NCBI GenBank assembly: GCA_023819605.1
Contig: JAMWCB010000001.1
Coordinates: 1 to 41,555, forward strand
Reading direction: 5' to 3'
Source of the DNA: Candidatus Omnitrophota bacterium
GTDB lineage: Bacteria > Omnitrophota > Gorgyraeia > B26-G9
Length of the DNA: 41,555 nt
The notes beneath the pieces are model-generated. The model made no database searches. It was not told where the DNA came from and saw only the letters and a list, made by a program, of their open reading frames with translations. Both the position numbers and the translations under genes were made by a program. Positions 794 to 24,388 of this stretch are shown here, one piece after another (within the stretch, counting starts at the first letter, position 1; each line of letters opens with the position of its first letter).

Positions 794-1240
794 TCATTTT
801 TGAACGGCATTGGCTGCTGCCGCGTCTTCCCGGCTGCTCAACGACGGCGCGCCCGGCTGTACGAACGTCACGGATTTCACCATCGATGCGCGCACTTTTC
901 GTCCATCATCGCGCGTTTGCGTCACTTCATCATAAGCGACCAATACGGTGTCGCCGAACGACAGATCTTCCCATTTACTGCGGCGGATCAATTTCGTTTT
1001 TTTTCGGTCGATCACAAAAGCCGCTTCCAACCCGGCGCCGCTTGCCGGATCGATCCCATAGTTCACCGACAAAAAATTACCGCTGATGCCGCTAATCTCA
1101 CCGGTCAGTTCTTTTGCGACTACCTGTTTCTTCGGCGCGGCCGCAACGGCCGGATCTCCGGCTAACACATCCGCGCACAACCACGCGCTGCTCACCATGG
1201 CCATCAAAAATGCGCTCCCCATCCTTATATACTGCTGCAT
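794..1240 (-). CDS. Hypothetical exported protein (148 aa)
   Basis: ATG at 1240 is preceded by GGGAGGG. The start overlaps the upstream stop (TAATG, 1238-1242). Signal-like N-terminus MGSAFLMAMVSSAWLCADVLA. No family recognised. Confidence 0.6.
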   Translation of the reverse strand: MQQYIRMGSAFLMAMVSSAWLCADVLAGDPAVAAAPKKQVVAKELTGEISGISGNFLSVNYGIDPASGAGLEAAFVIDRKKTKLIRRSKWEDLSFGDTVLVAYDEVTQTRDDGRKVRASMVKSVTFVQPGAPSLSSREDAAAANAVQK

Positions 1241-2460
1241 TATTCATCCCTCCCTGGCCGATGCTGCTCTTTACGAACCACCCGTATACTGGCAAAGGTA
1301 AAATCCTGCGCCGAATTTCCGTCTCGTCGCACACTGAGCACACCGCGCATCTGTGAATTTTCCACCTCGCCGCGCCATGAAGCGGTTCCGTTCCCGGAAG
1401 ATTGCATTGTTTCCCAAGACAGTAAGGCTTCCTCGCGCGTCACGGAAAAATTACTCGGCCCGAACCCTTGTTCCGTCAAAAAAGCTGAACTGAATTTACC
1501 CTGAAAAAATGTTAGCGCGTCGTTTTTGACGGCTCCATCCGGCGCAACCAAACGAATCCGCCATTCGGTATTTTCTAAATCGCGCACCGTGACGGATGCC
1601 GTTTCAACGACCACTGCCGGCGCTCCACGTTCCTCGACGCGCACCTGCCGCTTTTCCGGGCGCACAAACAACACACCGGCAAACGCGGCCGCGAGAAGAA
1701 TTACCATCAAAACAAACTGCCGCACCGACGAAAATTTCGAACGAGAATTAGAATTACGCGGCTGGTCCGCATCCGGCGCTGTCGGCGCAGGGGCAGGCTG
1801 CCGCATCGCGTATATTTCTTCCTGAACACGCTGCATAAATTCCGGAGATCCGATAATCCCCTTGCGCAATCCTTTTTCCAACTCCGCCGGCTCCTCGCTT
1901 TCTACCCATGCGGCTAAGCGTTCGTCATAACTGCGTTCAGACAAAATAACTTTCAACCCTTCAGAAAACGATTCCAATGGCACGCTTCCCGGCGGGCAGA
2001 GCGCACTATTTCCAGCGGAACGATACCACGCAGAGCTGTTATACGCCACCGGCTTCGCCTGGCCACTGCTTTCGCTTTTTTTTGCCGCCAAATGAATAAT
2101 ATGGCACATCGCCACTACATATACCGGAGAATCTTCCACCACTACTGCCCGGAACCGCTCCCGGAACAAATGGCCTTTACGCTGATACTGTCCGTTATAA
2201 TATTTTGTATACGCCGAATTTAAATTATGCATAAACTGGGATACGCCGGCTTTATTGTCCATGGCCAGCAATAAATGCATCTGCTCCGGCAACAACGCAT
2301 ATGCGCGAATGCCCGCGCCGTATTCCTTAATATATTTCGCCAATAAACTCATGTACATTTCGTAATCGCACTCCTGCGTAAAAATCTGCACTCCCGGTAA
2401 ACTACGGCACGTTATATAATAAACACATCCCTGTATATAAACTCTCGGTAAACGCGGCAT
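1240..2460 (-). CDS. IS200/RayT-like (Y1 HUH transposase fold) domain protein, apparently catalytically degenerate, with TM helix and C-terminal extracytoplasmic domain
   Basis: 406 aa, ATG 2460. The N-terminal ~130 aa follow the REP-associated tyrosine transposase pattern (PRVYIQGCVYYITCR, LLPEQMHLLL, KGHLFRERF). The HUH position reads Q-M-H. The helix that normally carries the catalytic Tyr (Y-I-x-x-N-P) reads MCHIIHLAAKK. A linker follows, then one TM helix (FVLMVILLAAAFAGVLFV) and a ~135-aa C-terminal domain. Confidence 0.7.
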   Translation of the reverse strand: MPRLPRVYIQGCVYYITCRSLPGVQIFTQECDYEMYMSLLAKYIKEYGAGIRAYALLPEQMHLLLAMDNKAGVSQFMHNLNSAYTKYYNGQYQRKGHLFRERFRAVVVEDSPVYVVAMCHIIHLAAKKSESSGQAKPVAYNSSAWYRSAGNSALCPPGSVPLESFSEGLKVILSERSYDERLAAWVESEEPAELEKGLRKGIIGSPEFMQRVQEEIYAMRQPAPAPTAPDADQPRNSNSRSKFSSVRQFVLMVILLAAAFAGVLFVRPEKRQVRVEERGAPAVVVETASVTVRDLENTEWRIRLVAPDGAVKNDALTFFQGKFSSAFLTEQGFGPSNFSVTREEALLSWETMQSSGNGTASWRGEVENSQMRGVLSVRRDGNSAQDFTFASIRVVRKEQHRPGRDE

Positions 2461-2985: not shown

Positions 2986-3744
2986 TTACCGTTTACCGGT
3001 AGCGCACAAATACAAAGAAAACTCCTCTTTCCCGTCGGCACGCACCAGCTCGTCCATCCGCTGCTGATCATACGCGGCAATCGCGCAGGCGCCGGCATTG
3101 ATTGCTTCGCAGGCCAGATACAAATTCTGACAGACATGGCCGGCATCCAGAGCGATGACCTTGCCGGCAGCCGCGCCATAGCGCCACTCCATGCGGTAAG
3201 GAACCGCCGTCCAGATGAACGTCGCGGCCGTCGCGGCAAGAAACTCCTGACCCAACGCCGCGGCAACCAATTTCGCGGCTAAACCCGCATCTGCATACAC
3301 GCACACCAATTCATGCGATAAAGGCAAATAACGGTATATCCCCCGCGGCAGCGCTTCAATCCGCAGCGCGCACACATAGGTCTCAAACGCATGCCGCGCC
3401 CCGGCTGACGGCACGGTGCGAAAGGTCGCCGTATCGCCGAACTTCCGCTGCAGCCCCTGCGCCGCCCAGAGCAAAAACGCTGTTTCTTCCAGCGAAAACG
3501 GCTGCGCCGCAAATTTTCGGCGGCTTCGCCGGCTGTTCATTGCGCCGGCCAGATCGACGCTGCCGATACGCGTCCACTGCGCGCGTTTCGGCAAAACGAT
3601 ACGCGCGGCCTGCGGATCGGCCGCTTTTTCAAACGGCGGCGGCGGAATACCTCTGCCCTGATCGGTTTTCGAAAAATCGACCCGCCGGCGCACCGTATCT
3701 TTTAAAAATTCCCGATACTGAACATCCCCGGGTAGGTCGCTCAC
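2986..3744 (-). CDS. SagB/ThcOx-type nitroreductase-family dehydrogenase
   Basis: 252 aa. The GTG start at 3744 forms GTGA with the upstream stop. Nitroreductase-fold motifs typical of the SagB subgroup: NSRRSRRKF, FRTVPSAGARHAFETYV, GIYRYLP, AVPYRMEWRYG, ALDAGHVCQNLYLACEA. Confidence 0.8.
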   Translation of the reverse strand: MSDLPGDVQYREFLKDTVRRRVDFSKTDQGRGIPPPPFEKAADPQAARIVLPKRAQWTRIGSVDLAGAMNSRRSRRKFAAQPFSLEETAFLLWAAQGLQRKFGDTATFRTVPSAGARHAFETYVCALRIEALPRGIYRYLPLSHELVCVYADAGLAAKLVAAALGQEFLAATAATFIWTAVPYRMEWRYGAAAGKVIALDAGHVCQNLYLACEAINAGACAIAAYDQQRMDELVRADGKEEFSLYLCATGKR

Positions 3745-4859
3745 GCGTTCACCTTTTGAAATATTTTCCGGTCGCCGTCGATCATTTTAAAAAGCTGCCG
3801 CGCCTCGCCCAATAATATTTCCGTCGCCCCCATGACAAAATAACCGAACGGCTGCAAGGCCTGATAAAATTTCATAATCAAATGTTCCTGTAAACTCCGG
3901 TTGAAATAAATAAACACGTTCCGGCACAGCACGATATCGACATGCTCCACCGGCAGATCATGGATTAAATCCCGCGCTTCAAAACGCACCATGCTTTTCA
4001 GATGCGGGACGATTTGAAACTCATCCTGCACCGGCAAAAAAAACCGCTGCAACCGCTCGGCGTTGACGTTTTTTACCATCTCCCGCTTAAAACGGGCGGC
4101 CGGCGCCTTGCGAATACTTGCCCGGTCGATATCCGTGCCGATAATTTCCACGGCAAGAGGGTCTGCTTCTTTTTGCATCGATTCATAAAAAAGAATCGCC
4201 AGCGAATAAGCCTCCGCGCCGCACGACGACCCGGCGCTCCACACGCGCACGCGGCGCTGTCCGTTTTTTTTCTTGTGCATAACCACTGCCGGGATAATCC
4301 GTTCCTGCAAAAACCTCCACACCTCCGGGTCGCGGAAAAAACTGGTCACATTGATCGTCAAAGCGTCGAAAAGTTTTTCGTACTCTTCCGCATCGTGAGT
4401 CAACACCTGCAAATACTCGGAAAACGTTTCCACGCGTTTGGCGCGCATCCGCACACCAACGCGCCGCTTCAATAAATCCTCGCGGTACTGTGAAAAATCC
4501 ACGCCCCGGTCGGCTTTGATTTGCCGCAATAAAAGCTCGTACGCTTCCGCCGTATCGGCGGCGCGCACCGCCGAAGTCTTATGCACGGGATTCGCGCTGA
4601 CTACGTTTACCGCGGCCATCAACTCGCGCAGGATAACCGCGCTGTTTTCCGCCTTGGAATTCTCTACCAAGAGCACCATCGCGCCTTTATCCGTCGTGAC
4701 GTATTTCGGCGGCACGCGCGTCAGGGCATACGCTAATATATCTTCATAACACTGTTCGCAGGTGCAAATATCTTTGCGCGTCGCCAGCATATTTTTTAAA
4801 TAATTTCTGGCCAGCGTTTCCATGATATTATAGGGGGCTGTTCCTTCACCGCTCGTCAT
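3741..4859 (-). CDS. ComFB-domain / CheR-type protein-glutamate O-methyltransferase fusion (paralog 1)
   Basis: N-terminal ComFB-type domain (NIMETLARNYL...DICTCEQCYEDILAYALTRVPPKYVTT...VVSANP). Then the CheR N-terminal helical domain (DFSQYREDLLKRRVGVRMR...TINVTSFFRD) and the SAM-MTase core (RVWSAGSSCGAEAYSLAI, IGTDID, LCRNVFIYFN). Start set at ATG 4859 by alignment with paralog 2; the ORF-track start is 4913. Confidence 0.85.
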   Translation of the reverse strand: MTSGEGTAPYNIMETLARNYLKNMLATRKDICTCEQCYEDILAYALTRVPPKYVTTDKGAMVLLVENSKAENSAVILRELMAAVNVVSANPVHKTSAVRAADTAEAYELLLRQIKADRGVDFSQYREDLLKRRVGVRMRAKRVETFSEYLQVLTHDAEEYEKLFDALTINVTSFFRDPEVWRFLQERIIPAVVMHKKKNGQRRVRVWSAGSSCGAEAYSLAILFYESMQKEADPLAVEIIGTDIDRASIRKAPAARFKREMVKNVNAERLQRFFLPVQDEFQIVPHLKSMVRFEARDLIHDLPVEHVDIVLCRNVFIYFNRSLQEHLIMKFYQALQPFGYFVMGATEILLGEARQLFKMIDGDRKIFQKVNA

Positions 4860-7125
4860 GCGCGCGCTTCTTTCCCTGTTTTTTTCGCAAAAAATCCCGG
4901 CGGATATCGGCAAACTCGAAGAGATGCTGTTGCCAACCGCGCGGTTTGGTATCCGTAGCTAAAAGGGCGTACACTTCCTGATCCGTCTGCGCCGACAGCA
5001 ACCGGCCGCGGTTTTCCGGTCGGCTAAAAAAAGCGCTGACCTGCGCGATAAACTCTAAATACGGCTCCGCGGCTTCCTCCGGCGCCAAGGTCAGCACGAA
5101 AATCTGCGCCGGTTTTCCGTCGAGCGACTCGAAACCGGCGCCGTCTTTTTTTATGCCGATCGCCACCCGCAGAGAATCTACCACGCGCGTACGGGCGTGG
5201 GGCAAGGCGATGCCTTCCTGCATGCCGGTGGACATATGCCGCTCCCGCTCCATCACTTCCCGCACGACAGTATCCTGTTCGGCTGGGGGCAATTGGCCGG
5301 CCTGCGCGAGCAGCGTCACTAATTCCTGAACAATCTCCTCTTTACTGTTGCCCTGCAGGGCAACGCGTACCGCCTCCGGATGAACATATTTTGCCAAAGA
5401 CTTCCTTCGACGATGTGCGGCCGGCGGCGGATTTTCAAAAATCTTCCGGCCGATTTCCATCCGTTCCGTGACTTTTTCAAGATTTTTTATCACGGATTCG
5501 AACTGCGCCAGCGCTTCATAAAAAAGCGTGTGCACAAACGTCGCGTCTTCTTCCGCGCAGTCAAAAATAAATTCATCCGGCGCATAGCCGAAAGAAATAA
5601 ACGTATTATCGCGCCGCAGTTCATAGCGTTTTTCCTCATGAATCAACAACGCATAGAACCCGTCCTGTTCAAACGCCTGCAAAACCTTCTGCTGCAAAAG
5701 CTCCGCGGTTTCGCGGTTCGGAATGCGATAGCGGATCCGCCGGCGCTGCAAATTCAGACCGTCGGTCTGCCGCAGCGCCGGTTTGTTGCGCGACAGGGCC
5801 GCGGCCATCAACGGCGGCGAAAAAAGCGTCGTCATGAAGACCATGAACACCGCGCTACTGAATACATTTTGCGAAATAATGCCGGAGGCCAGGCCGATCC
5901 CGGCGATGATCAACGCCACCTCTCCCCGCGGCACCATCCCCAATCCGATGATCGACGCGCCGTGCAGCGTAAAATTCAAGCAATACGCCGGCAGCATACC
6001 GCCGAAAAATTTTCCCAGCACGCTGAAGAGCAGATAAATCAGCCCAAAGGACAGAAGCTGCGGCGAAAATAATTCCCGGATATTCACCATCATCCCCATC
6101 ACGCAAAAAAACACGGGCACCATCAATTGCTGAAAAACGCGCAAATGCTTGCGCAGGACAATGGCCAAATCGGTTTTGGACAGGGAAATTCCGGCTACAT
6201 AGGCGCCGATAATCATCGCCAGCCCGAATTTTTCAAACAAACCCGCGGCGAGCAGAGCCAGCGCAAACCCGATAATCGTAATCGATTCCGTATTCCCGCT
6301 GCGTTTGAGCACACGGCTGAACGGCCGGGCAAAGGCGATTCCCAAGGCGCTGGCTCCCAGCCATAGCCCCACGGTTTTCAAAAAAACTGCCGCCAATGCC
6401 GGCAGGTCAAATCCGGCCTTGCGCCGAATCATCCCCATGATTATCGCCAAAGCCACAATACCGAGCACGTCGTCTATAATTGCCGCGGAGAGAATCGTGG
6501 TGCCTTCCGGGGAATCCATTTTCCGCTTATCGGCAAGAATACGCGCGCTGATTCCCACCGACGTGGCCGTGCCGATAATCCCCAGGAATAATACCGCCGG
6601 ATCCGTAAACCGGTGCGCCTGTCCGGTGGCCGTGCCTAAAAAGAAAACCGCGCTGAGCGCGCAAAACACGAAACTTACCACCACGCCGCCGCAACCGACC
6701 AGCGCGCCGGCCAAAGAAAAGCGGAATAAAACGTCCAAATTGGTTTCCAGGCCGACCATAAACAACAGAATAATCGAGGCCAGGGTCGCGACGCCGTACA
6801 GTTCCAACGTAACCGGGAATGCCGGTTGAACCGGAAATAACCCCTGGGCAAATCCCGGCAGGGGGATACTCCCGAGAAGATAGGGGCCGATAATCACCCC
6901 GCTAAAAAATTCTCCCATGACCGCCGGCACGTTCAGGGCATGAAAAAACGCGCCGCCGAGCCGGGCGGCGACTAAGATGATCCCCACCTGAAAAATAAAC
7001 ATTGTCGTCTGTTCGATAAACGCGCCGTCCGCGCCGCCGGACGCACAACAAAACGCCGGGGCCAGGCAGACGAACAGCCCCGCGCCGCATACACTGCCGA
7101 TACTCCGCACTATTTTACTGCCCAT
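4846..7125 (-). CDS. CPA2-type cation:proton antiporter fused to a C-terminal PTS EIIA type-2 (fructose/Ntr-like) domain
   Basis: Start moved to ATG 7125 (MGSKIVRSIGSVCGAGLFVCL...), because the track start 7329 lies inside the upstream gene. Multi-TM Na+/H+-exchanger-family core (VMGEFFSGVIIGPYLLG...). A ~150-aa cytoplasmic linker follows. The C-terminal EIIA-2 domain carries the GIALPHAR His motif. Confidence 0.85.
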   Translation of the reverse strand: MGSKIVRSIGSVCGAGLFVCLAPAFCCASGGADGAFIEQTTMFIFQVGIILVAARLGGAFFHALNVPAVMGEFFSGVIIGPYLLGSIPLPGFAQGLFPVQPAFPVTLELYGVATLASIILLFMVGLETNLDVLFRFSLAGALVGCGGVVVSFVFCALSAVFFLGTATGQAHRFTDPAVLFLGIIGTATSVGISARILADKRKMDSPEGTTILSAAIIDDVLGIVALAIIMGMIRRKAGFDLPALAAVFLKTVGLWLGASALGIAFARPFSRVLKRSGNTESITIIGFALALLAAGLFEKFGLAMIIGAYVAGISLSKTDLAIVLRKHLRVFQQLMVPVFFCVMGMMVNIRELFSPQLLSFGLIYLLFSVLGKFFGGMLPAYCLNFTLHGASIIGLGMVPRGEVALIIAGIGLASGIISQNVFSSAVFMVFMTTLFSPPLMAAALSRNKPALRQTDGLNLQRRRIRYRIPNRETAELLQQKVLQAFEQDGFYALLIHEEKRYELRRDNTFISFGYAPDEFIFDCAEEDATFVHTLFYEALAQFESVIKNLEKVTERMEIGRKIFENPPPAAHRRRKSLAKYVHPEAVRVALQGNSKEEIVQELVTLLAQAGQLPPAEQDTVVREVMERERHMSTGMQEGIALPHARTRVVDSLRVAIGIKKDGAGFESLDGKPAQIFVLTLAPEEAAEPYLEFIAQVSAFFSRPENRGRLLSAQTDQEVYALLATDTKPRGWQQHLFEFADIRRDFLRKKQGKKRAHDER

Positions 7126-7741
7126 CGGTATATTCCCTATGGTTACGCAGCGCGCGCCCCGCCGCAGCCGAGGATTTGCCGCTGCTTCCCGCGCCGACTG
7201 CCGGAAAACCGTCGGCCGGATTCCAAAGCCCCCGTTCCTGCGCGCGCGCGTCTGATTGCAACCGCCGCAACAACTCCGCATATTTAACGTTCGGCGGCAT
7301 GGTATAGACCGCGGCATAGCCGTCGGCAACCAGTTTTCCGTTCACCAACGTCCCGTCCGGCAAAAACACATACGCCAACAACCGTCGATACCGATCGCGG
7401 CGCTCAACATCAAATTCCAAACGGACCGCCTTTGCCTCGACCAGCGACCGCGTATAGAGCCGGGCGCGCGCTCCCTGCGCCGCGATTACCGTCTGGTCGC
7501 GTTTGGTGCGCGCGCTGTCCCGCTGCATTTTACCTGAACGGTGGCATTCCGGCGTATCGATACCGAGCAAACGCACCCGCTCGCCGTTCGCGAGCAGCAG
7601 CGTATCGCCGTCGATAACTTTTTCCACCACGATCTGCCGGTACTGCGCAGCGTTCCAGTAGGTAGCCACGCCGGTTCCCACGGCGAGCAGCGCCACCCAC
7701 GCCGCTGCGGCGGCGCGCGCCAGCCGGCGCCGGCCGCTCAC
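7115..7741 (-). CDS. Membrane-anchored thermonuclease (staphylococcal nuclease, SNase family)
   Basis: SNase motifs: VIDGDTLLL, RVRLLGIDTPE, RDRYRRLLAYVF, NGKLVADGYA, ARAQERGLW. The N-terminal hydrophobic anchor is LARAAAAAWVALLAVGTGVATYW. Preferred start is GTG 7741, which forms GTGA with the upstream stop. The track start 7861 would overlap the upstream gene by 124 nt. Confidence 0.8.
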   Translation of the reverse strand: MSGRRRLARAAAAAWVALLAVGTGVATYWNAAQYRQIVVEKVIDGDTLLLANGERVRLLGIDTPECHRSGKMQRDSARTKRDQTVIAAQGARARLYTRSLVEAKAVRLEFDVERRDRYRRLLAYVFLPDGTLVNGKLVADGYAAVYTMPPNVKYAELLRRLQSDARAQERGLWNPADGFPAVGAGSSGKSSAAAGRALRNHREYTDGQ

Positions 7742-8829
7742 GCCGCTTTCAATTTTTGATATATCCGGCACGCCGCATCCACTTCCCGGAACAATTCCCG
7801 CGCTTCTCCCAGAAGCGTTTCGGAATTGCCCATAATAAAATACCCGCCTTCCGCCAAACAATAATAGTATTTCATAATCAACTGTTCCTGCAGGCTGCGG
7901 TTAAAATAAATAAAAACATTGCGGCAGAGGATCATATCCACGCCGCTGATCCCCGCATCGTGGATTAAATTCCGTTCTTCAAAATGCACGGCGGTTTTAA
8001 TATGCGGCACGACGATGAACTCGTCGTCCACCGGCAGGAAAAACCGTTTCAGGCGCCGCGCATTGACATTGCGCAGGACATCGCGCCGATAATGCCCTTT
8101 GCCGGCCTGGCGCAGGCACGCTTTATCGATATCCGTGGCGACAATCTCAAACCGCACCCCGCGGGGATGCGTTTCCAAAAGTTCATAGAGCATAATCGCC
8201 AGTGAATACGGCTCTTCTCCGTGCGAACACCCGGCGCTCCAAATACGCACCGGCGATCCCGCCGGCGCCTTACGGCCGATAATCTCGGGAACAATTTCAT
8301 TTTCCAATTTTTCCCACACCGCGTCATCCCGGAAAAACGACGAGACATTGATCGTTAAAACATCGAATAATGCTTCATATTCCTGCGGCTCATGCGTGAG
8401 AATCTGCAGGTATTCGGGATACGTCTCCACCTTTCGCTCGCGCATGCGCACGGCGATGCGGCGCTGGAGCATACGCTCGCGGTACTGGGAAAAATCGACG
8501 CCGCGGTCAAGCATGATTTGCTTCATGAGCAACTTATACGCGTTCTGCCGATCATCCTGCTTTTCATGGCGCGGGTTGCTGCTGACCACCTGGATGGCGT
8601 TGAGCAGCTCTTTTAAAATCAACGATGATTGCTCGACGGCAACCTGCTCGATATGCGTATGCATGGCGCCGGCCTCCGACGTCACATAGCGGGCGGGGAT
8701 CCGGCTGAGCGCGTACGCGTAGATATCGTCACGGCAGCGTTTACACGTACAGATATCCCGGCGCGGCCGCAACATATCGTCGAGGTGCTTCGCAACGATG
8801 GCTTCCATGATATTCCGCGCTCTAACCAT
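7738..8829 (-). CDS. ComFB-domain / CheR-type protein-glutamate O-methyltransferase fusion (paralog 2)
   Basis: Same architecture as 3741-4859: NIMEAIVAKHL...DICTCKRCRDDIYAYALSRIPARYVTS (ComFB), DFSQYRERMLQRRIAVRMR...TINVSSFFRD (CheR_N), RIWSAGCSHGEEPYSLAI / ATDID / LCRNVFIYFN (MTase). ATG 8829 overlaps the cheC stop by 8 nt. Confidence 0.85.
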   Translation of the reverse strand: MVRARNIMEAIVAKHLDDMLRPRRDICTCKRCRDDIYAYALSRIPARYVTSEAGAMHTHIEQVAVEQSSLILKELLNAIQVVSSNPRHEKQDDRQNAYKLLMKQIMLDRGVDFSQYRERMLQRRIAVRMRERKVETYPEYLQILTHEPQEYEALFDVLTINVSSFFRDDAVWEKLENEIVPEIIGRKAPAGSPVRIWSAGCSHGEEPYSLAIMLYELLETHPRGVRFEIVATDIDKACLRQAGKGHYRRDVLRNVNARRLKRFFLPVDDEFIVVPHIKTAVHFEERNLIHDAGISGVDMILCRNVFIYFNRSLQEQLIMKYYYCLAEGGYFIMGNSETLLGEARELFREVDAACRIYQKLKAA

Positions 8830-9478
8830 GGTTCATTTTCCGCAACGACTGACGGGCGGCGTGTAAACTGCGTAATTCCGCGCACATCACCGCCGTTATT
8901 TCCCGGCAGGCGTGCGGCGACAAGATCAGCAAAAAAGACCCGGACAAACGGCTGGACATCGCCCGGAAGGTCATGGTATGCACGTACACCTGCTGCTGAA
9001 AATCAGCCGGCTTGACACCGTAACTCATCACGTCCGACAGCATACCGCTGGTCAGCACCGGAATGGACGGGATCACCGACTTGCGCAACAAAACGCTCAT
9101 CGTATTCGAATACGCCGAAACCACGATATTACCGATTTCTTTAATCGACGAAATGCCCATTTCCGTCAGAAATCCGCAGCTTTCCCCCGCCTTACTGCGA
9201 AACAACGACGCAAAGTCATAGGCGGTTTTCTCTTCAAAAACCAGCGAAACGAAACCGCTAATGCCGGCCAACATCTGGCAATGCACGCCGATGACCATCG
9301 CGTCATTGATGCGGTAATTCCGCGCGATATCCCGCACGGCAATTGAGTCCAAGGACGGCGCTTCCAGGACCACGGAGCGCTTGATCATTTGCGAAAAAGC
9401 CTGTGTCGAATTGCCGGCGCAGATACTGCCGACTTCCCTGATAATATCCGGTTGGGTTAAACGCCGTTCGCCTGCCAT
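8822..9478 (-). CDS. cheC: CheC-family (CheC/CheX/FliY-like) CheY-P phosphatase
   Basis: Two copies of the D/S-x3-E-x2-N-x22-P motif. The first is DIIREVGS-x22-P, with N replaced by S. The second, SSIKEIGN-x22-P, is intact. Start set at ATG 9478 (MAGERRL), which has GGGAGG 6 nt upstream and lies downstream of the predicted promoter. The track start is 9556. Confidence 0.75.
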   Translation of the reverse strand: MAGERRLTQPDIIREVGSICAGNSTQAFSQMIKRSVVLEAPSLDSIAVRDIARNYRINDAMVIGVHCQMLAGISGFVSLVFEEKTAYDFASLFRSKAGESCGFLTEMGISSIKEIGNIVVSAYSNTMSVLLRKSVIPSIPVLTSGMLSDVMSYGVKPADFQQQVYVHTMTFRAMSSRLSGSFLLILSPHACREITAVMCAELRSLHAARQSLRKMNHG

Positions 9479-9527
9479 ATCGACCTCCCTGTACGCCGCA
9501 GGTAATGGATACCTCTTATGTTTTCGT

Positions 9528-9556
9528 AGTATACCACAGCGCGATGCGGCGGACAA
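9528..9556 (-). promoter_or_regulatory. Sigma70-like promoter for the cheC operon
   Basis: Minus strand: TTGTCC (9556-9551), 17-nt spacer, TGg-TATACT (extended -10; hexamer 9533-9528). It lies ~45 nt upstream of ATG 9478. Confidence 0.4.
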
Positions 9557-16071: not shown

Positions 16072-17505
16072 CTACGCCACACAGATCCGGTTCTTGCCGC
16101 CGCTTTTCGCCTGATAGAGCGCCTTATCCGCAGCGGTAACGAAATCTTCTTTAGACATGCTCTTTTTAAATTCCGCCACGCCGCCGCTGACCGTCATTTT
16201 CTTATAATGGCGCTGCGTGCCGGTCTCAAACTTCAATTCATCGATCGACTGCCGGATTTTTTCCGCAACCGTCACGGCTTCGCCGATACGTGTTTCCGGC
16301 AAAATGACCGCAAATTCCTCGCCGCCGTACCGGCAGGGGATATCGACTTTGCGCACGGCCTTGCGGATGGTTTTCGCGATCTGCTGCAGCACCAAGTCGC
16401 CCAGCGGATGCCCGTAGGTATCGTTGAATTCCTTAAAAAAATCGATATCGAACATAATCAACGCTAACGGATGCGGATAGCGCTGCACACGCAGCACTTC
16501 CGCGGTAAGCTGTGTCTGAAAATAGCGGTGGTTATACAATTCCGTCAACCCGTCGGTAATCGCCAAATTTTTCACCTCGCCGTACAGCTGCGCATTCTCC
16601 AGCGCAATCGCGGCGTAATTGCAGACCAGGCCGATAAACCGCGCTTCCTCCTCGCTGAATTCCGGCACCGGCATTATTTCCAGGCGGTCGGTGGCGTTAA
16701 TGACTCCGATCACGCGATCCTTAATCTTCAACGGAATGCAGAGCAACGACTTCGACTGGTATTGCGGCAGATTTGTCCGGCCGAAATGCATATCCTCCTC
16801 GATATTCGTCACCACGACCGGCTTGCCCTCTTTTGCCGCCCAGCCGCTAATCGACTCGCCCATGGCCACCCGCGTAGTCTGAATAACCAAATCTTCCAAC
16901 CCGATCGCCGCGGCGATCGTCAACATATCCTCCTCATCGCGCAACATCAGCGAACACGTCCGCGCGCCGAGCAGACCGGCAATCTGCCGCACGATGCACT
17001 GAGCCAGCTCGTCAAGGTTCAGAATGGAATTTAAAACGTGCCCGATCTGCAGCACGGTCTGGAGCTTCTCTTTTTCTTTTTGCAGATTAAGCACCAACTG
17101 TTTATTCTCCCGCAATAACGCCCGTTCTTTCAATCCCCGTTTAATCAATAATTTGACGTGGCTGACGTCGAACGGTTTCGTCACATACTCGTACGCTTCC
17201 TCGAGCACCGCGCGAATCGCCGATTCCGTCGTGGGGTAGGCGGTAATCAGAATCGCGCAAATATCCGGACAATTCTGTTTCAAAACCCGCAGCACACTCG
17301 TGCCGTCGATATCCGGAAGCTTTAAATCGATAATCGCCAAATCAAACTCTTGCCGCTCGGACAACCGCATTGCTTCCGCGCCGCTCTGGGCAGCATGCAC
17401 GGTATAGCCTTCTTCGCGTAAAATAGCGCATAACGAATCCAAAATAACCGGTTCGTCGTCGACTAAAAGAAGCGTGCCGCTCTGCGCCGGAACATTCGTA
17501 GCCAT
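16072..17505 (-). CDS. Response regulator REC-GAF-GGDEF diguanylate cyclase
   Basis: REC domain (LLLVDDEPV...DLAIIDLKLPDIDG...KPF). GAF domain (LGARTCSLMLRDEE...LLCIPLKIKDRVIGVINATD). GGDEF domain with active-site GGEEF and an RxxD I-site in the canonical position (RKVD-IPCRY-GGEEF). GAGGAG RBS. Confidence 0.9.
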   Translation of the reverse strand: MATNVPAQSGTLLLVDDEPVILDSLCAILREEGYTVHAAQSGAEAMRLSERQEFDLAIIDLKLPDIDGTSVLRVLKQNCPDICAILITAYPTTESAIRAVLEEAYEYVTKPFDVSHVKLLIKRGLKERALLRENKQLVLNLQKEKEKLQTVLQIGHVLNSILNLDELAQCIVRQIAGLLGARTCSLMLRDEEDMLTIAAAIGLEDLVIQTTRVAMGESISGWAAKEGKPVVVTNIEEDMHFGRTNLPQYQSKSLLCIPLKIKDRVIGVINATDRLEIMPVPEFSEEEARFIGLVCNYAAIALENAQLYGEVKNLAITDGLTELYNHRYFQTQLTAEVLRVQRYPHPLALIMFDIDFFKEFNDTYGHPLGDLVLQQIAKTIRKAVRKVDIPCRYGGEEFAVILPETRIGEAVTVAEKIRQSIDELKFETGTQRHYKKMTVSGGVAEFKKSMSKEDFVTAADKALYQAKSGGKNRICVA

Positions 17506-17515
17506 AGACTTCTCC

Positions 17516-18385
17516 TCATTGATCCGGCACCGGTAAACGGATCGTAAACGTCGCTCCCGCCTTGCCGCCGCGATTATTTTCCGCCCGAATCGTCCCGTGG
17601 TGATTATGAATAATTTCCCGGGTGATCGCCAACCCCAAACCGATACCTTTGACTTTCGTCGTAAAAAAAGGTTCGAAAATCGACTCCAAACACTCTTTCG
17701 CGATTCCCGGACCGCTGTCGCTGATCCTGATCACGACTTCCGCGCCTTCCTGCGCCGCGCTGATCCGCAGGGTACCGCCGCCGACCATCACTTCGCCGGC
17801 ATTGATCAATATATTCATCAACACCTGCCGGATCTGCTGGCTGTCCATCCACAGCAACGGCAGCGCGTCCGGAATATCGCGCTGAATAACCGTATGACTG
17901 AAACAACCCTGCTGCGCCGCGGAGAGAACCGCTTCATGAATCGCCTGGGTGATACTCGCGCGCTCAAAGCAGGGCTGGCTGATTTTCGCGTGCTGCAGGA
18001 TATTCGCGATGATCGTATTCGCAAAGACGACTTCCCGATGAATCGTGCGGATAATCTCCGGGAGTTCCGGCTGATCGTCGACGCGGCGCAACAGGTACTC
18101 GGCCGCAACTTTGATCCCGCTCAAGGGATTGCGCAATTCATGGCCAATCACCGCCGCCATTTTCCCGAGCGTTTCCAAGCGGTCGGAATGACGGGACTGC
18201 TGGTCCAACCCGTGCAAATCCTTATCCGTGCGTTTTAACGTATGCAGCTTTCCGCGCAATTCGTGCATAAGCGCGTCCGCCTCCGCCGCCGATAATCCGT
18301 CTAAACACCGCACCATGCACGCCAGCAGCGCCTGCAAGCTCGGCGCTTCTTGAATCAAATGTTTGACCTTCTGAAAATCGCTCAT
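17516..18385 (-). CDS. Cytoplasmic histidine kinase (HisKA + HATPase_c, no TM segment)
   Basis: H-box IGHELRNPLSG, N-box NILINAGEV, G-boxes ISDSGPGI and GIGLGLAI. ATGA overlap with the upstream kinase. Confidence 0.85.
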   Translation of the reverse strand: MSDFQKVKHLIQEAPSLQALLACMVRCLDGLSAAEADALMHELRGKLHTLKRTDKDLHGLDQQSRHSDRLETLGKMAAVIGHELRNPLSGIKVAAEYLLRRVDDQPELPEIIRTIHREVVFANTIIANILQHAKISQPCFERASITQAIHEAVLSAAQQGCFSHTVIQRDIPDALPLLWMDSQQIRQVLMNILINAGEVMVGGGTLRISAAQEGAEVVIRISDSGPGIAKECLESIFEPFFTTKVKGIGLGLAITREIIHNHHGTIRAENNRGGKAGATFTIRLPVPDQ

Positions 18386-19728
18386 TCATGCACCTGCTCG
18401 CCTTCCGGCGGGCTGTCGCGCAGCGGAACGCGCACGATAAACGACGCGCCTTTTCCCGGCTCGCTTTCCAACGAAACCGTCCCGCCATGGTTATGCACGA
18501 TATTATAGACAATCGACAATCCCAAGCCCACGCCCTTGGCCCGCGTCGTAAAAAAAGGCCGAAAAATCTTCTCCCGGACTTCCGCCGCGATGCCTTCCCC
18601 GGTATCGGTAACCCGCACCTCGACCATGCCGCCCTGCAGCGCCGAAGCAATGGTCAACCTGCCGCCCTGGGGCATTGCCCGAATCGCGTTATTCAATAAA
18701 TTGACCACCACATGCTTCATTTGGCGCGGGTCGAAAAAAAATTGCGGCAGCAACGGCGTAAACGCGCGCTCCACGCTCACCGCCGTGTTGCGCATAGAAA
18801 ACGCGACCATGCGTATCGACTGCTCCAAAATACGGTTCAAATCCGCCCGCTCCCAAACAAGATTCTGCGGCCGCGCGTAGGTCAGCACATTCGTCACCAC
18901 CGTGCTTGCGTAATCGATTTCAAACCCGATATCTTCGAAAATTTCACAAAGTTCCGGCTCTTCAATCTTCACCTTGCTCCGCAGGTAACTCAGGGCCATT
19001 TTAATTCCGGTCAGCGGATTGCGCAAATCGTGGCTGATCGATGCCGCCATTTGCCCGAGCACGGCCATTTTTTCATGCTGAATACGCTCCTCTTGCGACT
19101 GCTGCAGCGTTAAATAGGAAAAATACGCTCCTAAATATCGCCGCTGCACTTGCATAAAAAAGCCGATGATCCCGGCGCAAAACACCAGAAAAAAAACCGC
19201 GTCGCGGCCGACTTCCCGCCAAAAATTGTCGACGAGGGGCTGCCAATTAATGATCGTCACGACCACGCGCTCTTTCTGCGGCATCGGCGCCGCCAGCACA
19301 AAATATTTTTCGCCGTCGCTTCGAATCAGCTGATCCGCCCCCTGCCGCATACCCAGCGCTTCCTGAACGAGGCCGGCGACCGTTCCCTGCAATAAAAGTT
19401 CCCTATCGCCGCTGGCAAACAAAAGATCCCCATCCCAGCCGAACAAGCCGATATTCCGTATACTCGCGTTGACATTTTGGCCGGAAACCCAGAGTTGAAA
19501 CCGTTCATCCTGATACGCATAATTGGTTAAGTCGAGGATGGTCATCAACGAATATGACACATTCCACGCTTCGCGGCGGAAATCAGCGACAAGATGCCGG
19601 TAATGCGCAAACGCGCGCACACCGGTAATTAACGAGGCGCAGGCTATACAAAAAAAGACCAGGGCCAGAACAAGCCGGCTGGTTTTTGCCGGGACGGAGA
19701 CCGGGAGAAAATTTTCATCCATGGACAC
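18382..19728 (-). CDS. Membrane sensor histidine kinase (two TM segments flanking a ~150-aa extracytoplasmic region)
   Basis: TM1 LVLALVFFCIACASLITGV, TM2 AVFFLVFCAGIIGFF. H-box ISHDLRNPLTG, N-box LLNNAIRAM, G-boxes VTDTGEGI and GVGLGLSI. The first codon at 19728 is GTG; an ATG follows at 19722. Confidence 0.85.
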   Translation of the reverse strand: MSMDENFLPVSVPAKTSRLVLALVFFCIACASLITGVRAFAHYRHLVADFRREAWNVSYSLMTILDLTNYAYQDERFQLWVSGQNVNASIRNIGLFGWDGDLLFASGDRELLLQGTVAGLVQEALGMRQGADQLIRSDGEKYFVLAAPMPQKERVVVTIINWQPLVDNFWREVGRDAVFFLVFCAGIIGFFMQVQRRYLGAYFSYLTLQQSQEERIQHEKMAVLGQMAASISHDLRNPLTGIKMALSYLRSKVKIEEPELCEIFEDIGFEIDYASTVVTNVLTYARPQNLVWERADLNRILEQSIRMVAFSMRNTAVSVERAFTPLLPQFFFDPRQMKHVVVNLLNNAIRAMPQGGRLTIASALQGGMVEVRVTDTGEGIAAEVREKIFRPFFTTRAKGVGLGLSIVYNIVHNHGGTVSLESEPGKGASFIVRVPLRDSPPEGEQVHE

Positions 19729-19811: not shown

Positions 19812-19841
19812 ATGATACCATGGTTATTCCGAAACTGTCAA
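19812..19841 (-). promoter_or_regulatory. Sigma70-like promoter for the kinase operon
   Basis: Minus strand: TTGACA (19841-19836), 18-nt spacer, TGg-TATCAT (hexamer 19817-19812). It lies ~85 nt upstream of the start codon. The -35 box is the edge of a repeat also found at 26339-26391. Confidence 0.45.
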
Positions 19842-20096: not shown

Positions 20097-21350
20097 TCAC
20101 GCACTGTTCTGGTGCGCCGCCATAATCGAATCTTTCACCGCGGAAAAATTACGCATATCATCCATTATTTTTTCAAATAACTGTTCCTGTTCCGCGGTGA
20201 CCGCGCCGACTTCCGATGCGACCACCGTAACTTCCGCGGCAATCGGCAGAACACTTTCCATGCACGCGCGGATATTTTCCAAGCCGGAAATCACGCTCAG
20301 CGTCGTTTCACTGATCCCGGTGACTTTGTCTTTGGCTTCCAGGCTCGCCGCATGCATATTCTGAAAAAACCCGGCTAAATGCCCGACATTGCCGATCGCT
20401 TCATTCAACGATTCTGTGCCCTCGCCCATGCACTGAGCCGCAAACGCCGTCTTTTCCAATATTTCCCGAATACGCACGCCGATGCCCTTCGCCGATTCCC
20501 CGCTCTCTTCCGCCAATTTCCGCACTTCCTCGGCGACCACGGCGAACCCCCGGCCGGCTTCGCCGGCGCGCGCGGCTTCGATCGCGGCATTCAGCGCCAG
20601 CAAATTCGTCTGATCGGCGATGCGCGTCAAAAGGTTAACGATTTCGTTGATACTGTTCGATTTCTCCACCAAATCATTAATCGCGTCCGCGGAATGAGTA
20701 TTGGTGTCCCGGCAGTTCGTGATGAACTTGGACGTTCCGTCCGCGTATTTCTTACCTTCTGTCGCCGCTTCATACGCCGTCTTGGAAGAACTCACCGATT
20801 CTTTCGCGCTCTCCGTAATGTACGAAGAGGATATGGCGATCGCTTCGATCAAGCCCAACGTCTGCTCAATCTGTCCGGACTCCTCTTTGGTTTTTTGCGC
20901 TAATTTTTTCACCGTCCGGCTCAACTTCGCATCCGCGTCCATAATCCGCTGGCACGTCGCGAACAAGTCATCAACCAGGCGAAAAACCGTTTCCCGGATC
21001 TGCACGTTTTCTCCGGCCAGCGCAGCAAAATGCGTCGCGCAGTTATTCACCTGGTCGGCGATCCCGGCAATTTCCGCCGGACCGGAAATACGCAGCTGAT
21101 CCGATAATTGTTGCCGGCCGGCGGCATAGGCGGCCACCCCCCCCCGCAGAGCGTGTAGCGGCCGCGCTACCTCTCGCCGCAATAGAACGACGGTTATCGC
21201 CGCCGTGCACAGACAAAAAACGATTTTAAAAAAAATAATCCCGCCCACCGACAGCACGCCGTGGCTCACGGATATGTTCAACCACAGCGAGAACCCGGTC
21301 ACAACGAGACCGAACCAAATACACAATATGCCGGCTATTTTTTTTATCAT
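20097..21350 (-). CDS. Methyl-accepting chemotaxis protein (two TM helices with ~8-aa loop, HAMP, short signalling domain)
   Basis: The highly conserved hairpin tip is [41 protein letters not shown]. The N-terminus [53 protein letters not shown] leaves no periplasmic domain. The track start 21356 is TTG; ATG 21350 is preferred. Confidence 0.9.
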
Positions 21351-21357
21351 CAGCAAC

Positions 21358-21582
21358 CTAAAACTGTACTTGGATGACTTTTTTCCCGCCGCCGATATCT
21401 TTTGCCGACAGCATCGTCCGTTTCGTGCGGTCGCACCACGCGCGCACGTCTTTTTCGAACGTGGAACAATCCGCCGTCACTTCCAATATATCACCCGGCT
21501 TCATTTCCGGAACTTTCTGAGCCAGTTTCAATACCGGCTGAGGGCATTTCAAACCAACCGCATCCAATTTTATCACCGCCAT
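21358..21582 (-). CDS. tusA: TusA/SirA-family sulfur-carrier protein
   Basis: 74 aa with the [14 protein letters not shown] (CPxP) active-site Cys motif. GGAGAGG RBS. The stop lies 7 nt before the MCP ATG. Confidence 0.8.
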
Positions 21583-21701
21583 ATCCGCACCTCTCCTCGT
21601 TTAAGGGGCCACACCCTCCCGCATAGGGCCGTCGCAACCGTTGCGCCGGCCTGGAGAACGACATCTAAAAATTTTTTTAACAAACACCTCATGATATTTC
21701 G

Positions 21702-22145
21702 CTATACCGCAGTTTCTTTGCTTTCCGCCGTATGCGGCAAACGCAGCGGTCCTAAAGCGCGCACGGTTTCAATCATCTCCCCGGCCACCCGGATAAATTT
21801 TTCCCCTTCGCTTGCCGAAACCCAATCCAGGCAATACCGCTGTTTCTCGATACCAAAATCGGAAAGCACCTGCTCCAGAATTGCGTGCCGCTTAAGCATC
21901 TTATAATTACCTTCTTTATAATGGCAGTCGCCGGGATGGCAACCCAAAATCAGCACCCCGTCGGCGCCCTGCCGAAACGCTTCCAAAACGAACTGCGGAT
22001 CGATACGGCCGGTGCACATCACCCGCACAATCCGCACCAATTCCGCGGGGACTTTACGCTGCGCCCGTCCGGCAGCATCCGCGCCGGAATACGAACACCA
22101 GTTACACAGAAACGCCACGACTTTCGGCTGGAATTGTTCAGACAT
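21702..22145 (-). CDS. mvhD: MvhD-like hydrogenase iron-sulfur subunit (methyl-viologen-reducing hydrogenase delta subunit family)
   Basis: VAFLCNWCSYSGADAAG...VMCTGRIDP...GADGVLILGCHPGDCHYKEGN is the characteristic Cys pattern of MvhD. Confidence 0.85.
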   Translation of the reverse strand: MSEQFQPKVVAFLCNWCSYSGADAAGRAQRKVPAELVRIVRVMCTGRIDPQFVLEAFRQGADGVLILGCHPGDCHYKEGNYKMLKRHAILEQVLSDFGIEKQRYCLDWVSASEGEKFIRVAGEMIETVRALGPLRLPHTAESKETAV

Positions 22146-22156
22146 AACGCTCCTTT

Positions 22157-24388
22157 CTATTTCAACAAAGCTTGGATTTCAGCGCAAATCTGCTCATCGC
22201 GGAAATGCTGTCCGACGATCGCGCCGCTGGGACAGGCCGCCACGCAAATACCGCAGCCACGGCACAATACCCCGCTGATCACCGAAACGTGTTTTTCTCC
22301 GTCATAACTGATCGCGTGGTAGGGGCACAAATCCACGCAGGTTTTACAACCGGAACAGCGTTTTTCATCGACCACCGAAACCGCCGGCTCAAGCTGGATT
22401 TTTTCTCCCGGAACCAGCCGCGAGAGCACCATACCGGCAGCGGCGACTCCCTGCGCTACCGAACCGGCCACATCCTGCGGCGACTGCGCGCAGCCGGCGA
22501 CCAAAATTCCGTCGCGCGCCGTGGCGAACGAGGACAACTTCACATGCTCCTCGATAAAAAAACGCGCGCCGTCGACCGGCACATCGAGCAGACGCGACAA
22601 GGGCTCCGCCTGACGAGAACCTTCCATGGCCGGCGCCAACACCACCATATCCGCGCGGACATTCAGACGTTTCTCGCGGCGCAGCGTGCCGCCCGCGCAA
22701 TTCGCCTGCTCCTCCACATCCACCCCGGCAATCTCGAGAACACCGTCGGTTTGGCCGATCTGCAGCGCATTCGGATTGCGCACCCGCAGATAATGCGTAT
22801 TCGTTTCCCGGATCAGCTGTTCGAAGAACGGCTGCATTTTTTTACCCGGAAAACACAAATCGGAATAAATACTGAGCACCTGGGTTTCCGGAAGTTTATG
22901 ATGGATCAGGCGGGCGAACTTCGCCAGGTACGCGCAACAAATCCCCGAACAATAATCGCGGTGCTCCGCCGTGCGCGAGCCCACACAATGCACTAAGGCG
23001 ATCGTCCGCGGCACGCTGCCGTCGCGGCGGACGATTTTACCTTCCGTCGGACCGCTGGCGCTCATCATCCGCTCGAAGGCCAGACTGGTGTACACATCCG
23101 GAATTTTCCCCAAACCCAAATTTCCGAGGGGTGCGGCATCGAACAAATCGAAACCCGTAGCGGCAATCACCGCTCCGACTTTCAATTCCCGCACTTCATC
23201 ATCCTGGCCGTAGTTAACCGCCCCGAACGCGCAAGCCGCCTCGCACAGCGAACATTCCTTGCCCTGGAAACGTAAACAATGCGCCTTATCGATAACCGGA
23301 ACATTGGGCAGGACTCCCGGATACGGCAAATAAATCGCTTTCCGTTTGCTTAAATTTTCGTTAAATTCATTATCCAATTCCACCGGACAGGCTTCCACGC
23401 ACGCACCGCAGCCGATACATGCCGGCTCGTCCACGCCGCGGGCTCTTTTTTTGACTTTGACTTCAAAATTACCGAAATAACCCAGCACTTCCTGCACATC
23501 CGAACAGGTCAGCGTTTCAATCCGTTCATTGTGCAAAACGGCATCCATCTTCGGTTCCAGCATGCACGGCGCGCATTCCATATTCGGAAACGACTCTTCA
23601 TAGCGCACGGTTTTACCGCCGATACACGGCAACTGCTCCACAAGATATACCTTGCGCTGCTTCTGGGCCAACGCCAGCGCGGCGCTCATCCCGGTAATGC
23701 CGGCGCCGATAACCAGCACATCCGGACAAATATCGATTTCTTTTTCCTCCAACGGCTCCTGCACCAACACCCGCCGCACCGCCGCCTTAATCATCAACGC
23801 CGCCAGATCCGTTGCCTGCTGCTTATCGGACATAATCCATGCGCATTGCTCCCGGATATTGGCGATCCGCAAAAGATACGGATTAATTCCGGCCTGCTTG
23901 AGCACCTTCTTGAACGTATGCTCATGCTCTCGCGGCGAACACCCGGCAATAACCACGCGCGTCAACTGGTTCGTTTTAATATCTTCCGCCAACCCCTGCT
24001 GCCCGTCGCCGGAACACAGCAGCGAAAACGCCTTGACCAGCACCACATTATCCAAGAGCCTGGCGGCTTCGATCAACGCGGGGAAATCCAAAGCCTCTTT
24101 TAAATTCGGACCGCATTCGCACAAAAACACACCTACTCGCTCCGCGGTGGACACCACCAATTTTCCGGAAATTTCCTGCCCTTCCGTGGCGACGATTTCC
24201 ACCGCGACGTTTTCCAATTTCGACCCTTTGGTCAAACTCGCGAACCATTGCCGCAGGACTGCTTCGCTGATCCCCAACCCGCTGCCGACATTGAGGACCA
24301 CTTTATTGACTTTTTCAATGTCGAAACGCGGCTCAATCACCTGGAGAAGCCTGACCACCAAATCTTTAGTAATTTGTACTTCCCGCAT
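22157..24388 (-). CDS. hdrA: HdrA-like heterodisulfide reductase subunit A (FAD, multiple 4Fe-4S) with an ~85-aa N-terminal extension
   Basis: The canonical HdrA N-terminus starts at VGVFLCECGPNL...VVIAGCSPREHEHTF...IREQCAW. FAD motif VLVIGAGITGMSAALALA. HdrA hallmark CVGSRTAEHRDYCSGICCAY. Ferredoxin CxxCxxCxxxCP motifs occur in the middle and at the C-terminus. ATG 24388 has a GGAGAAAGCGGGGGG RBS. Confidence 0.9.
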   Translation of the reverse strand: MREVQITKDLVVRLLQVIEPRFDIEKVNKVVLNVGSGLGISEAVLRQWFASLTKGSKLENVAVEIVATEGQEISGKLVVSTAERVGVFLCECGPNLKEALDFPALIEAARLLDNVVLVKAFSLLCSGDGQQGLAEDIKTNQLTRVVIAGCSPREHEHTFKKVLKQAGINPYLLRIANIREQCAWIMSDKQQATDLAALMIKAAVRRVLVQEPLEEKEIDICPDVLVIGAGITGMSAALALAQKQRKVYLVEQLPCIGGKTVRYEESFPNMECAPCMLEPKMDAVLHNERIETLTCSDVQEVLGYFGNFEVKVKKRARGVDEPACIGCGACVEACPVELDNEFNENLSKRKAIYLPYPGVLPNVPVIDKAHCLRFQGKECSLCEAACAFGAVNYGQDDEVRELKVGAVIAATGFDLFDAAPLGNLGLGKIPDVYTSLAFERMMSASGPTEGKIVRRDGSVPRTIALVHCVGSRTAEHRDYCSGICCAYLAKFARLIHHKLPETQVLSIYSDLCFPGKKMQPFFEQLIRETNTHYLRVRNPNALQIGQTDGVLEIAGVDVEEQANCAGGTLRREKRLNVRADMVVLAPAMEGSRQAEPLSRLLDVPVDGARFFIEEHVKLSSFATARDGILVAGCAQSPQDVAGSVAQGVAAAGMVLSRLVPGEKIQLEPAVSVVDEKRCSGCKTCVDLCPYHAISYDGEKHVSVISGVLCRGCGICVAACPSGAIVGQHFRDEQICAEIQALLK

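Follow-up and report, generated by a model that had tools for sequence, protein, structure and literature searches.

Which signal could be read by a chemoreceptor that has no sensory domain of its own and is encoded directly behind a redox module and a sulfur-carrier protein? This question is raised by four minus-strand genes, hdrA-mvhD-tusA-mcp, on a 41,555-nt stretch of DNA (the window) that is contig C42 of the Candidatus Omnitrophota genome G000, a 2.26-Mb metagenome-assembled genome (MAG) of 181 contigs and 92.7% completeness. We propose, with a probability of roughly one half, that these genes descend, with loss of the hydrogenase, from a widespread sensory cluster of the cytoplasm, hdrA-mvhD-mvhG-mvhA-(hycI)-tusA-transducer, in which TusA relays a state set by HdrA-MvhD to the receptor. 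Such a cluster would probably turn the internal redox or sulfur state of the cell into a swimming or signalling response. Below, G017 denotes a relative genome of the same family, L-numbers denote related loci or contigs and P-numbers denote homologues of the methyl-accepting chemotaxis protein (MCP).

We found that the pairing of tusA with a transducer gene recurs well beyond the window. A profile scan for the TusA subfamily across species-representative genomes returned at least 582 loci, of which the best 80 were annotated, and the next gene on the same strand was counted for the 78 TusA copies with at least 900 nt of downstream sequence, with MCPs assigned by domain-specific queries and Pfam. 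Of these 78 copies, 32 precede a genuine MCP gene and 14 the gene of a hybrid histidine kinase that usually begins with a Cys-rich domain of the two-CW type; a further 24 precede other open reading frames (ORFs), and 8 are followed by no ORF of at least 120 amino acids. Among the other ORFs are additional signalling genes, which encode split MCPs, two-CW proteins, the HAMP-STAS protein of L106 and a protein combining a response regulator with HisKA; the rest are unrelated genes such as uvrC, apgM and DUF3373. The tusA-mcp adjacency is far beyond chance and is conserved over several phyla, which answers a check proposed in the first-pass annotation of this DNA. Carriers of this TusA subfamily include Nitrospirota/Thermodesulfovibrionales, Thermodesulfobacteriota, Geobacteraceae, Omnitrophota, Elusimicrobiota, Planctomycetales and Eisenbacteria.

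Both the upstream partners and the outputs of the pair vary. HdrA and MvhA are encoded upstream in 46 of the 59 TusA copies with at least 6 kb of upstream sequence, and three upstream contexts occur in all: Hdr/Mvh, HdrA-MvhD only, and DsrE. TusA-transducer pairs also exist without any Hdr/Mvh or DsrE (L066 and L116). At least three output types are paired with TusA. Twelve Thermodesulfobacteriota loci have a hybrid histidine kinase after tusA, in place of an MCP (L057, L064, L074, L077, L079, L087, L096, L104, L105, L109, L114 and L117); these kinases begin with the two-CW motif (CW..C....C......CW...C), followed by soluble HAMP-like units and PAS domains, and the two-CW model (NCBIfam NF045718) is also matched in the MCP of L110. 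In L106 (2866-7585), hdrA-mvhD-tusA is followed by genes for a HAMP-like/STAS protein, a STAS protein and a fusion of an RsbW-like kinase with a SpoIIE phosphatase, a predicted partner-switching cascade that appears to be a third output type on the same input genes. With a fixed input gene and varying upstream partners and outputs, the TusA-transducer pair has the make-up of a typical sensory input module, and this pattern is the strongest argument that the two are functionally coupled.

The gene orders of relatives place these pairs close to chemotaxis genes and to a hydrogenase. Complete che operons flank the cluster in seven loci (L034, L047, L058, L060, L066, L108 and L110), and in L034 the genes cheY-cheW border the cluster at one end and cheA-cheB-cheW-cheR at the other. 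On one contig, G017 encodes hypA-hdrA-mvhD-mvhG-mvhA-hycI-tusA-mcp, whose products are 65% (TusA), 63% (MvhD) and 55% (HdrA) identical to those of the window, and the metagenome contigs L034 to L037, reached through TusA and MCP homologues, have a G017-like gene order. The Geobacteraceae loci L093 and L112 are arranged as MCP-mvhG-mvhA-hycI-hdrA-mvhD-tusA, so that the MCP stands at the opposite end of the cluster from tusA.

Within the window the four genes are tightly spaced, except at one position. The intergenic distances are 11 nt between hdrA and mvhD, 119 nt between mvhD and tusA, and 7 nt between tusA and mcp, exactly the order and gaps first reported from the ORF list and sequence. Where the window has its 119-nt spacer, relatives encode an Mvh-type [NiFe] hydrogenase and usually its maturation protease (Table 1), as identified from the gene orders of L027/L099, L034, L036, L037 and 46 genome loci. 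The predicted fold of the spacer is as stable as that of shuffled sequences (z = 0.05). A riboswitch or other RNA was also considered, and an Rfam scan of the leader and the 119-nt spacer returned nothing at E <= 0.1. A separate promoter and terminator between tusA and mcp, which had been named at the outset as a finding that would speak against a shared function, were sought in the 7-nt gap, and the scan found nothing promoter- or terminator-like there. Functional coupling of TusA to the receptor is the best-supported reading of these observations, because the adjacency is conserved over phyla and contexts and the 7-nt gap holds neither a promoter nor a terminator.

The TusA-like protein is unusual in its Cys content. 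It has the TusA fold with the CPxP active-site Cys (PF01206), and its 74-residue subfamily is 62-73% identical across phyla. Three Cys are invariant among 38 homologues: C13 in CPQP, C39 in DC[PS]TF and C50 in WC, which align with Cys19, Asp45 and Cys56 of Escherichia coli TusA, respectively. Cys19 is the active Cys of the E. coli protein, and C39 forms a DCP motif as in YedF. The window protein does not score as an orthologue of the tRNA-thiolation TusA (41.1 bits against a cut-off of 78 for the NCBIfam equivalog NF001423), and it belongs to a distinct subfamily with three invariant Cys. All three are intact in the window copy, which bears the most deviations among 75 sequences (K55R, E63I and I72V). 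Persulfide carriage by this protein is putative and is suggested by context, namely the dsrE genes that adjoin tusA of the same subfamily in L118, L120 and L121. Genome G000 carries a second TusA-family gene on contig C138.

The receptor itself offers few places for a signal to enter. Its assignment as an MCP is secure (PF00015, E 1.3e-33, 116.7 bits against a cut-off of 34.6), and the sequence at its hairpin tip is invariant with that of its homologues. Hydropathy and an AlphaFold model (mean pLDDT, the predicted local distance difference test, of 72) agree on two transmembrane (TM) helices separated by about 7 residues; the model has helices at 2-27, 35-88, 92-261 and 263-416, a loop at 28-34 and a long antiparallel helical hairpin that turns at residue 262. 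Since the TM helices are joined by only some 7 residues, there is no periplasmic sensor, in agreement with the initial description of a two-TM receptor with a loop of about 8 residues, and no ligand-binding domain, periplasmic or cytoplasmic, was found by Pfam, hydropathy or the AlphaFold model. The putative HAMP domain is diverged (PF00672, 19.1 bits, under the 25-bit cut-off) and the model is of low confidence there; Pro64 and Asn102 are conserved at HAMP-typical positions. Of the two possible starts of the gene, the ATG is favoured because homologues share the N-terminus M-x-KKI.

The closest homologues of this MCP are of the same short hairpin type (416-437 amino acids, 29-37% identity over about 90% of the length), and three of the four nearest (P0003, P0004 and P0005) are encoded directly downstream of a TusA of the same subfamily. 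P0003 is preceded by hdrA-mvhDGA-hycI-tusA, and P0004 and P0005 are preceded by dsrE-tusA on three contigs (L118, L120 and L121) whose other neighbours differ. Together, the window version and these dsrE-tusA-mcp triads point to TusA-MCP as the core pair.

Two further candidates were set aside. A search for orthologues of the MCP among 40 relatives gave only generic matches (25-33% identity), and the receptor is not conserved in the family. A dedicated TusA-receiving domain was sought with a hidden Markov model built from recurring 'LALGLSE..F...GD..VR' units; the model matched 80 of 120 generic MCPs and missed the window MCP subfamily, so the recurring unit is just HAMP.

Is the hydrogenase really missing, and if so, was it lost? 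Initially, the window was described as lacking hdrB/hdrC, hydrogenase and formate dehydrogenase genes, and this is borne out: none of these is encoded among its large ORFs, of which those outside the module and its signalling neighbours are housekeeping or unrelated genes. Across the G000 assembly, no [NiFe] large subunit (PF00374) was found, the MvhA, MvhG and HycI proteins of relatives gave no tblastn match, and DsrE was likewise not found. The genome does encode three [FeFe] hydrogenase catalytic subunits (contigs C100, C90 and C91) and two che clusters (contigs C115 and C143). In a tree of HdrA sequences, the window protein is sister to that of L037, which has a full cluster (SH-aLRT support, from the Shimodaira-Hasegawa-like approximate likelihood-ratio test, of 97), and 46 of the 48 sequences come from hydrogenase-bearing clusters. 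Consequently, the loss in the window is derived. HdrA-MvhD-TusA was at first treated as a stand-alone module; in relatives it is almost always an Hdr/Mvh [NiFe]-hydrogenase cluster. A second hydrogenase-less version lies inside an intact che operon in L108 (Eisenbacteria), and its loss is independent of that in the window. HdrB/C were absent within 10 kb from 84 of 85 related loci according to a CCG-motif regular expression, a weak test that is unvalidated on known HdrB.

The remaining genes of the module show both retention and change. MvhD normally bridges the Mvh hydrogenase to HdrA; the window protein is 63-70% identical to MvhD of intact clusters and retains all 20 conserved columns, defined as those with at least 95% identity among homologues. 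Compared with 48 cluster homologues, HdrA has kept every one of the 23 conserved Cys and 88 of the 90 conserved columns, and it scores 614.7 bits against the NCBIfam HdrA2 model, under the 1100-bit cut-off. Its ORF begins with a HypA-like segment that is 34% identical to the separate 84-residue HypA of G017. The fused segment starts with MRE, having lost His2, while relatives start with the nickel-binding motif MHE; in L099 and L110, a free-standing, truncated hypA that encodes only the N-domain (start MHEIGIVED) lies directly upstream of hdrA. The fusion of HypA to HdrA with its altered MRE start is one more mark left by the loss of hydrogenase function. None of the four ORFs is interrupted over the 4.3 kb, and the window copy reads as a maintained but somewhat faster-evolving variant of the cluster.

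Elsewhere in G000, a second HdrA-like gene of 757 amino acids, 38-41% identical, lies on contig C66 (L028 3402-5675, minus strand). It has an N-terminal extension of about 300 residues with no Pfam match, and it is flanked by genes for a TPR/SPOR protein and a radical-SAM MiaB-like protein; no partner gene of Hdr or Mvh type adjoins it.

From these sequences we infer the following relay. The three-Cys TusA-like protein would be the signal carrier, and the flavin and Fe-S module of HdrA-MvhD would set the thiol, persulfide or disulfide state of its C13 and C39. In intact clusters the electrons could come from H2 via MvhAG; in the window version they might come from another reductant, for example ferredoxin reduced by the [FeFe] hydrogenases of the genome. 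The cytoplasmic part of the receptor, either its HAMP domain or its signalling bundle, would then sense the state of TusA by touching the protein directly, and the output would pass to the CheA/CheW encoded elsewhere (contigs C115 and C143), giving a redox or sulfur 'energy taxis'.

Several observations weigh against this proposal. No conserved Cys was found in the alignment of the MCP subfamily, contrary to an early suggestion that the HAMP or proximal region might hold one, so that any read-out would have to rely on contact between the proteins, with no thiol chemistry on the receptor. The original idea that the receptor reads the redox or persulfide state of the module is partly supported: the conserved, tight TusA-MCP pairing speaks for it, and a thiol read-out on the MCP itself is not supported. 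Neither a Cys nor any domain beyond HAMP was found to be common to all TusA-adjacent transducers, and many of these transducers bear Cys-rich sensors of their own (CZB or two-CW), so TusA need not be their input. HdrA alone, without HdrB, is not known to reduce disulfides, and no HdrB-type CCG domain (PF02754) was found in G000, in a search whose controls matched in 12 of 14 genomes. The TusA module is present in only 2 of 18 genomes of the family, and the closest MCP homologue, P0002, lies on a 2-kb contig that offers only 80 nt of upstream sequence, in which tusA is absent. Finally, the deviations of the window TusA, the loss of HypA His2 and the terminal branch of HdrA (0.50, compared with 0.30 for its sister L037) are signs of relaxed constraint.

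The chief rival explanation is metabolic: Hdr/Mvh and TusA would form a cytoplasmic oxidoreductase of H2 and sulfane sulfur, or of other substrates, with TusA as the substrate carrier, and the MCP or histidine kinase would sense on its own (by CZB, two-CW or the membrane hairpin) and merely be co-expressed, receiving no direct signal from TusA. Sulfur carriage is an established role of TusA-family proteins, and DsrE and TusA pair up in sulfur relays; the dsrE-tusA-mcp triads fit such a role, as do the redox-type sensors (CZB and NF045718) that many adjacent transducers already possess. About one third of the TusA copies precede unrelated genes such as uvrC, apgM and DUF3373, and the Geobacteraceae place the MCP away from tusA. 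However, the sensor-less MCP subfamily of the window keeps TusA immediately upstream in three contexts, TusA-transducer pairs persist where neither Hdr/Mvh nor DsrE is encoded, and the window genome has retained TusA and the MCP despite the loss of its hydrogenase. We consider the metabolic explanation unlikely, though it survives better than the others.

A second explanation is that the locus is a decaying remnant, in which deletion of mvhG-mvhA-hycI left no working unit, the loss was recent and the adjacency is simply inherited. The hydrogenase genes are gone from both the locus and the 92.7%-complete genome, hypA has been fused and has lost its nickel motif, the HdrA branch is longer than that of L037, and TusA is the furthest from its family consensus, with a patchy distribution in the family. 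Set against this are the four uninterrupted ORFs with their retained Cys and conserved columns and the perfectly conserved MCP tip. In addition, the identity to the nearest intact cluster is about 59%, which makes a very recent loss unlikely, and an independent hydrogenase-less version resides within the intact che operon of L108. Decay is thus doubtful, and less probable than the metabolic explanation. That the hydrogenase is missing only because the assembly was collapsed or wrongly joined, for example at the 119-nt spacer, is very improbable. Although the genome is a fragmented MAG and the exact MCP and TusA sequences are known from one contig only, the junction is mid-contig, within 41.5 kb of even composition, and no mvhA or mvhG fragment exists elsewhere in the assembly. 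Moreover, both the fusion of hypA to hdrA and the replacement of MHE by MRE testify independently to the loss of hydrogenase function.

We return to the sensory relay and its consequences. More generally, though we advance this only tentatively, the TusA-like protein may be a dedicated carrier whose state is set by Hdr/Mvh, by HdrA-MvhD alone or by DsrE, and which passes that state directly to interchangeable MCP, hybrid histidine kinase or STAS transducers. If so, chemotaxis and two-component systems would receive input by a route that has not been described before, in hundreds of genomes and at least six phyla. HdrA-MvhD(-MvhGA) clusters that lack HdrBC are common in bacteria, and their steady pairing with a special TusA and varied transducers suggests a sensory role for many of them, with H2, redox state or sulfane sulfur as the signal. 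A large number of the Hdr/Mvh hydrogenases that bacteria encode in 'group 3c' would then be sensors and not energy enzymes, forming a new sensory hydrogenase class with receptor input via a small sulfur-carrier protein. The window would be a natural dissection of such a cluster, in which the hydrogenase is gone and HdrA-MvhD-TusA-MCP persists with its key residues.

Table 1. Features of the hdrA-mvhD-tusA-mcp locus, its surroundings and the dsrE-linked relatives. Coordinates are those of the window unless a locus is named.
Feature	Coordinates	Strand	Description
hdrA ORF	22157-24388	minus	743 aa
HypA-like N-terminal segment of HdrA ORF	24137-24388	minus	Residues 1-84, in-frame fusion; Pfam HypA E 1.5e-5 over residues 1-70
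HdrA core	22157-24136	minus	N-terminal Cys domain, flavin adenine dinucleotide (FAD) domain, inserted and C-terminal ferredoxin domains; Pfam FAD and multiple Fer4 (4Fe-4S)
mvhD	21702-22145	minus	147 aa ORF; MvhD (FlpD), [2Fe-2S] electron-transfer subunit; PF02662 E 1e-48, full profile length
mvhD-tusA spacer	21583-21701	minus	119 nt; in relatives, mvhG, mvhA and usually a HycI-type protease gene here (about 3 kb)
tusA	21358-21582	minus	74 aa ORF; TusA-like protein, three-Cys subfamily; PF01206 E 2.4e-18, 66.1 bits against cut-off 28.6; CPQP motif
mcp	20097-21350	minus	417 aa from ATG at 21350, 419 aa from open TTG at 21356; chemoreceptor with TM1, loop of about 7 residues, TM2, diverged putative HAMP, long signalling hairpin, tip near residue 262
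Promoter-like site	19812-19841	minus	TTGACA-18-TATCAT, 11/12, TG-extended; in 368-nt gap after mcp
Membrane histidine kinase	18382-19728	minus	Pfam domains
Soluble histidine kinase	17516-18385	minus	Pfam domains
REC-GAF-GGDEF diguanylate cyclase	16072-17505	minus	Pfam domains
dsrE-tusA-mcp triad	L118 7388-9251		Three-Cys TusA 64% identical to that of the window; hairpin-type MCP; no Hdr/Mvh
dsrE-tusA-mcp triad	L120 946-2809		As for L118
dsrE-tusA-mcp triad	L121 1248-3111		As for L118

Downstream of mcp, the two histidine kinase genes and the response regulator/GAF/GGDEF gene probably form a separate transcription unit, because the promoter-like site precedes them (Table 1). The window also holds several genes of separate interest. 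Two paralogous ComFB-CheR fusions (ComFB, CheR_N and CheR methyltransferase), a combination that looks unusual, are encoded at 3741-4913 and 7738-8829 on the minus strand, and a CheC-like gene lies at 8822-9556. An 827-residue fusion of an Na+/H+ exchanger membrane domain with a C-terminal EIIA-2 domain of the phosphotransferase system is encoded at 4846-7329 (minus strand), and close to the left end a 406-residue ORF (1240-2460, minus strand) contains an IS200-like Y1 transposase domain.

How does the proposed relay compare with known systems? As in the electron-bifurcating MvhADG-HdrABC complex of methanogens, the window combines an HdrA that has the full set of Cys ligands and an FAD domain with a following MvhD, and its relatives add MvhG and MvhA, whose best NCBIfam matches are VhuG and VhuA. 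Unlike the methanogen complex, the window lacks MvhA/G and HdrB/HdrC, and a TusA-like protein and a transducer are attached instead. The receptor half resembles Aer-type energy-taxis receptors, in which an N-terminal PAS-FAD domain is followed by a membrane hairpin, HAMP and a signalling domain. Both cross the membrane as a hairpin whose periplasmic loop is minimal and continue into a signalling domain, through a HAMP domain that is only putative in the window MCP; both presumably take their input from the redox state of a flavin in the cytoplasm. In contrast to Aer, the window MCP has no PAS match in Pfam and begins at TM1, and the flavoprotein HdrA and the small Cys protein are separate polypeptides.

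The TusA fold, the CPxP Cys, the linkage to Hdr-type proteins and the presence of DsrE in some relatives recall the TusA/DsrE relays linked to sHdr-type sulfur oxidation (PMC6067878). The sHdr systems, however, include HdrB/C and lipoate-binding proteins, which are absent here, and the present TusA-like protein has an extra invariant Cys (DCP, YedF-like) and a score under the TusA equivalog cut-off. Among hydrogenases, HydDB describes [NiFe] group 3c, the 'heterodisulfide reductase-linked' group, only as bifurcating, and its sensory classes are [NiFe] 2b (histidine-kinase-linked), [NiFe] 2c (diguanylate-cyclase-linked) and the putative chemotactic [FeFe] C2 (MCP-linked), with no chemotactic [NiFe] class (PMC5037454). 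These sensory classes share with the present clusters a redox enzyme module that is genomically wired to signalling outputs, MCPs included; they differ in having no HdrA, MvhD or TusA, while the window version has no hydrogenase at all.

Another related system is the Mvh cluster of Geobacter sulfurreducens, in which one gene is annotated as a methyl-accepting chemotaxis transducer, 'MvhV' (PMC7894505). There too, an Mvh-type hydrogenase and HdrA-MvhD are encoded together with an MCP, but the MCP comes first, tusA comes last and the hydrogenase is present. Apart from this annotation, our literature search for a functional link between Mvh/Hdr, TusA and an MCP found no published account. Compared with the known redox- and energy-sensing arrangements, the probable new element is therefore the TusA-like protein as the link to the receptor.

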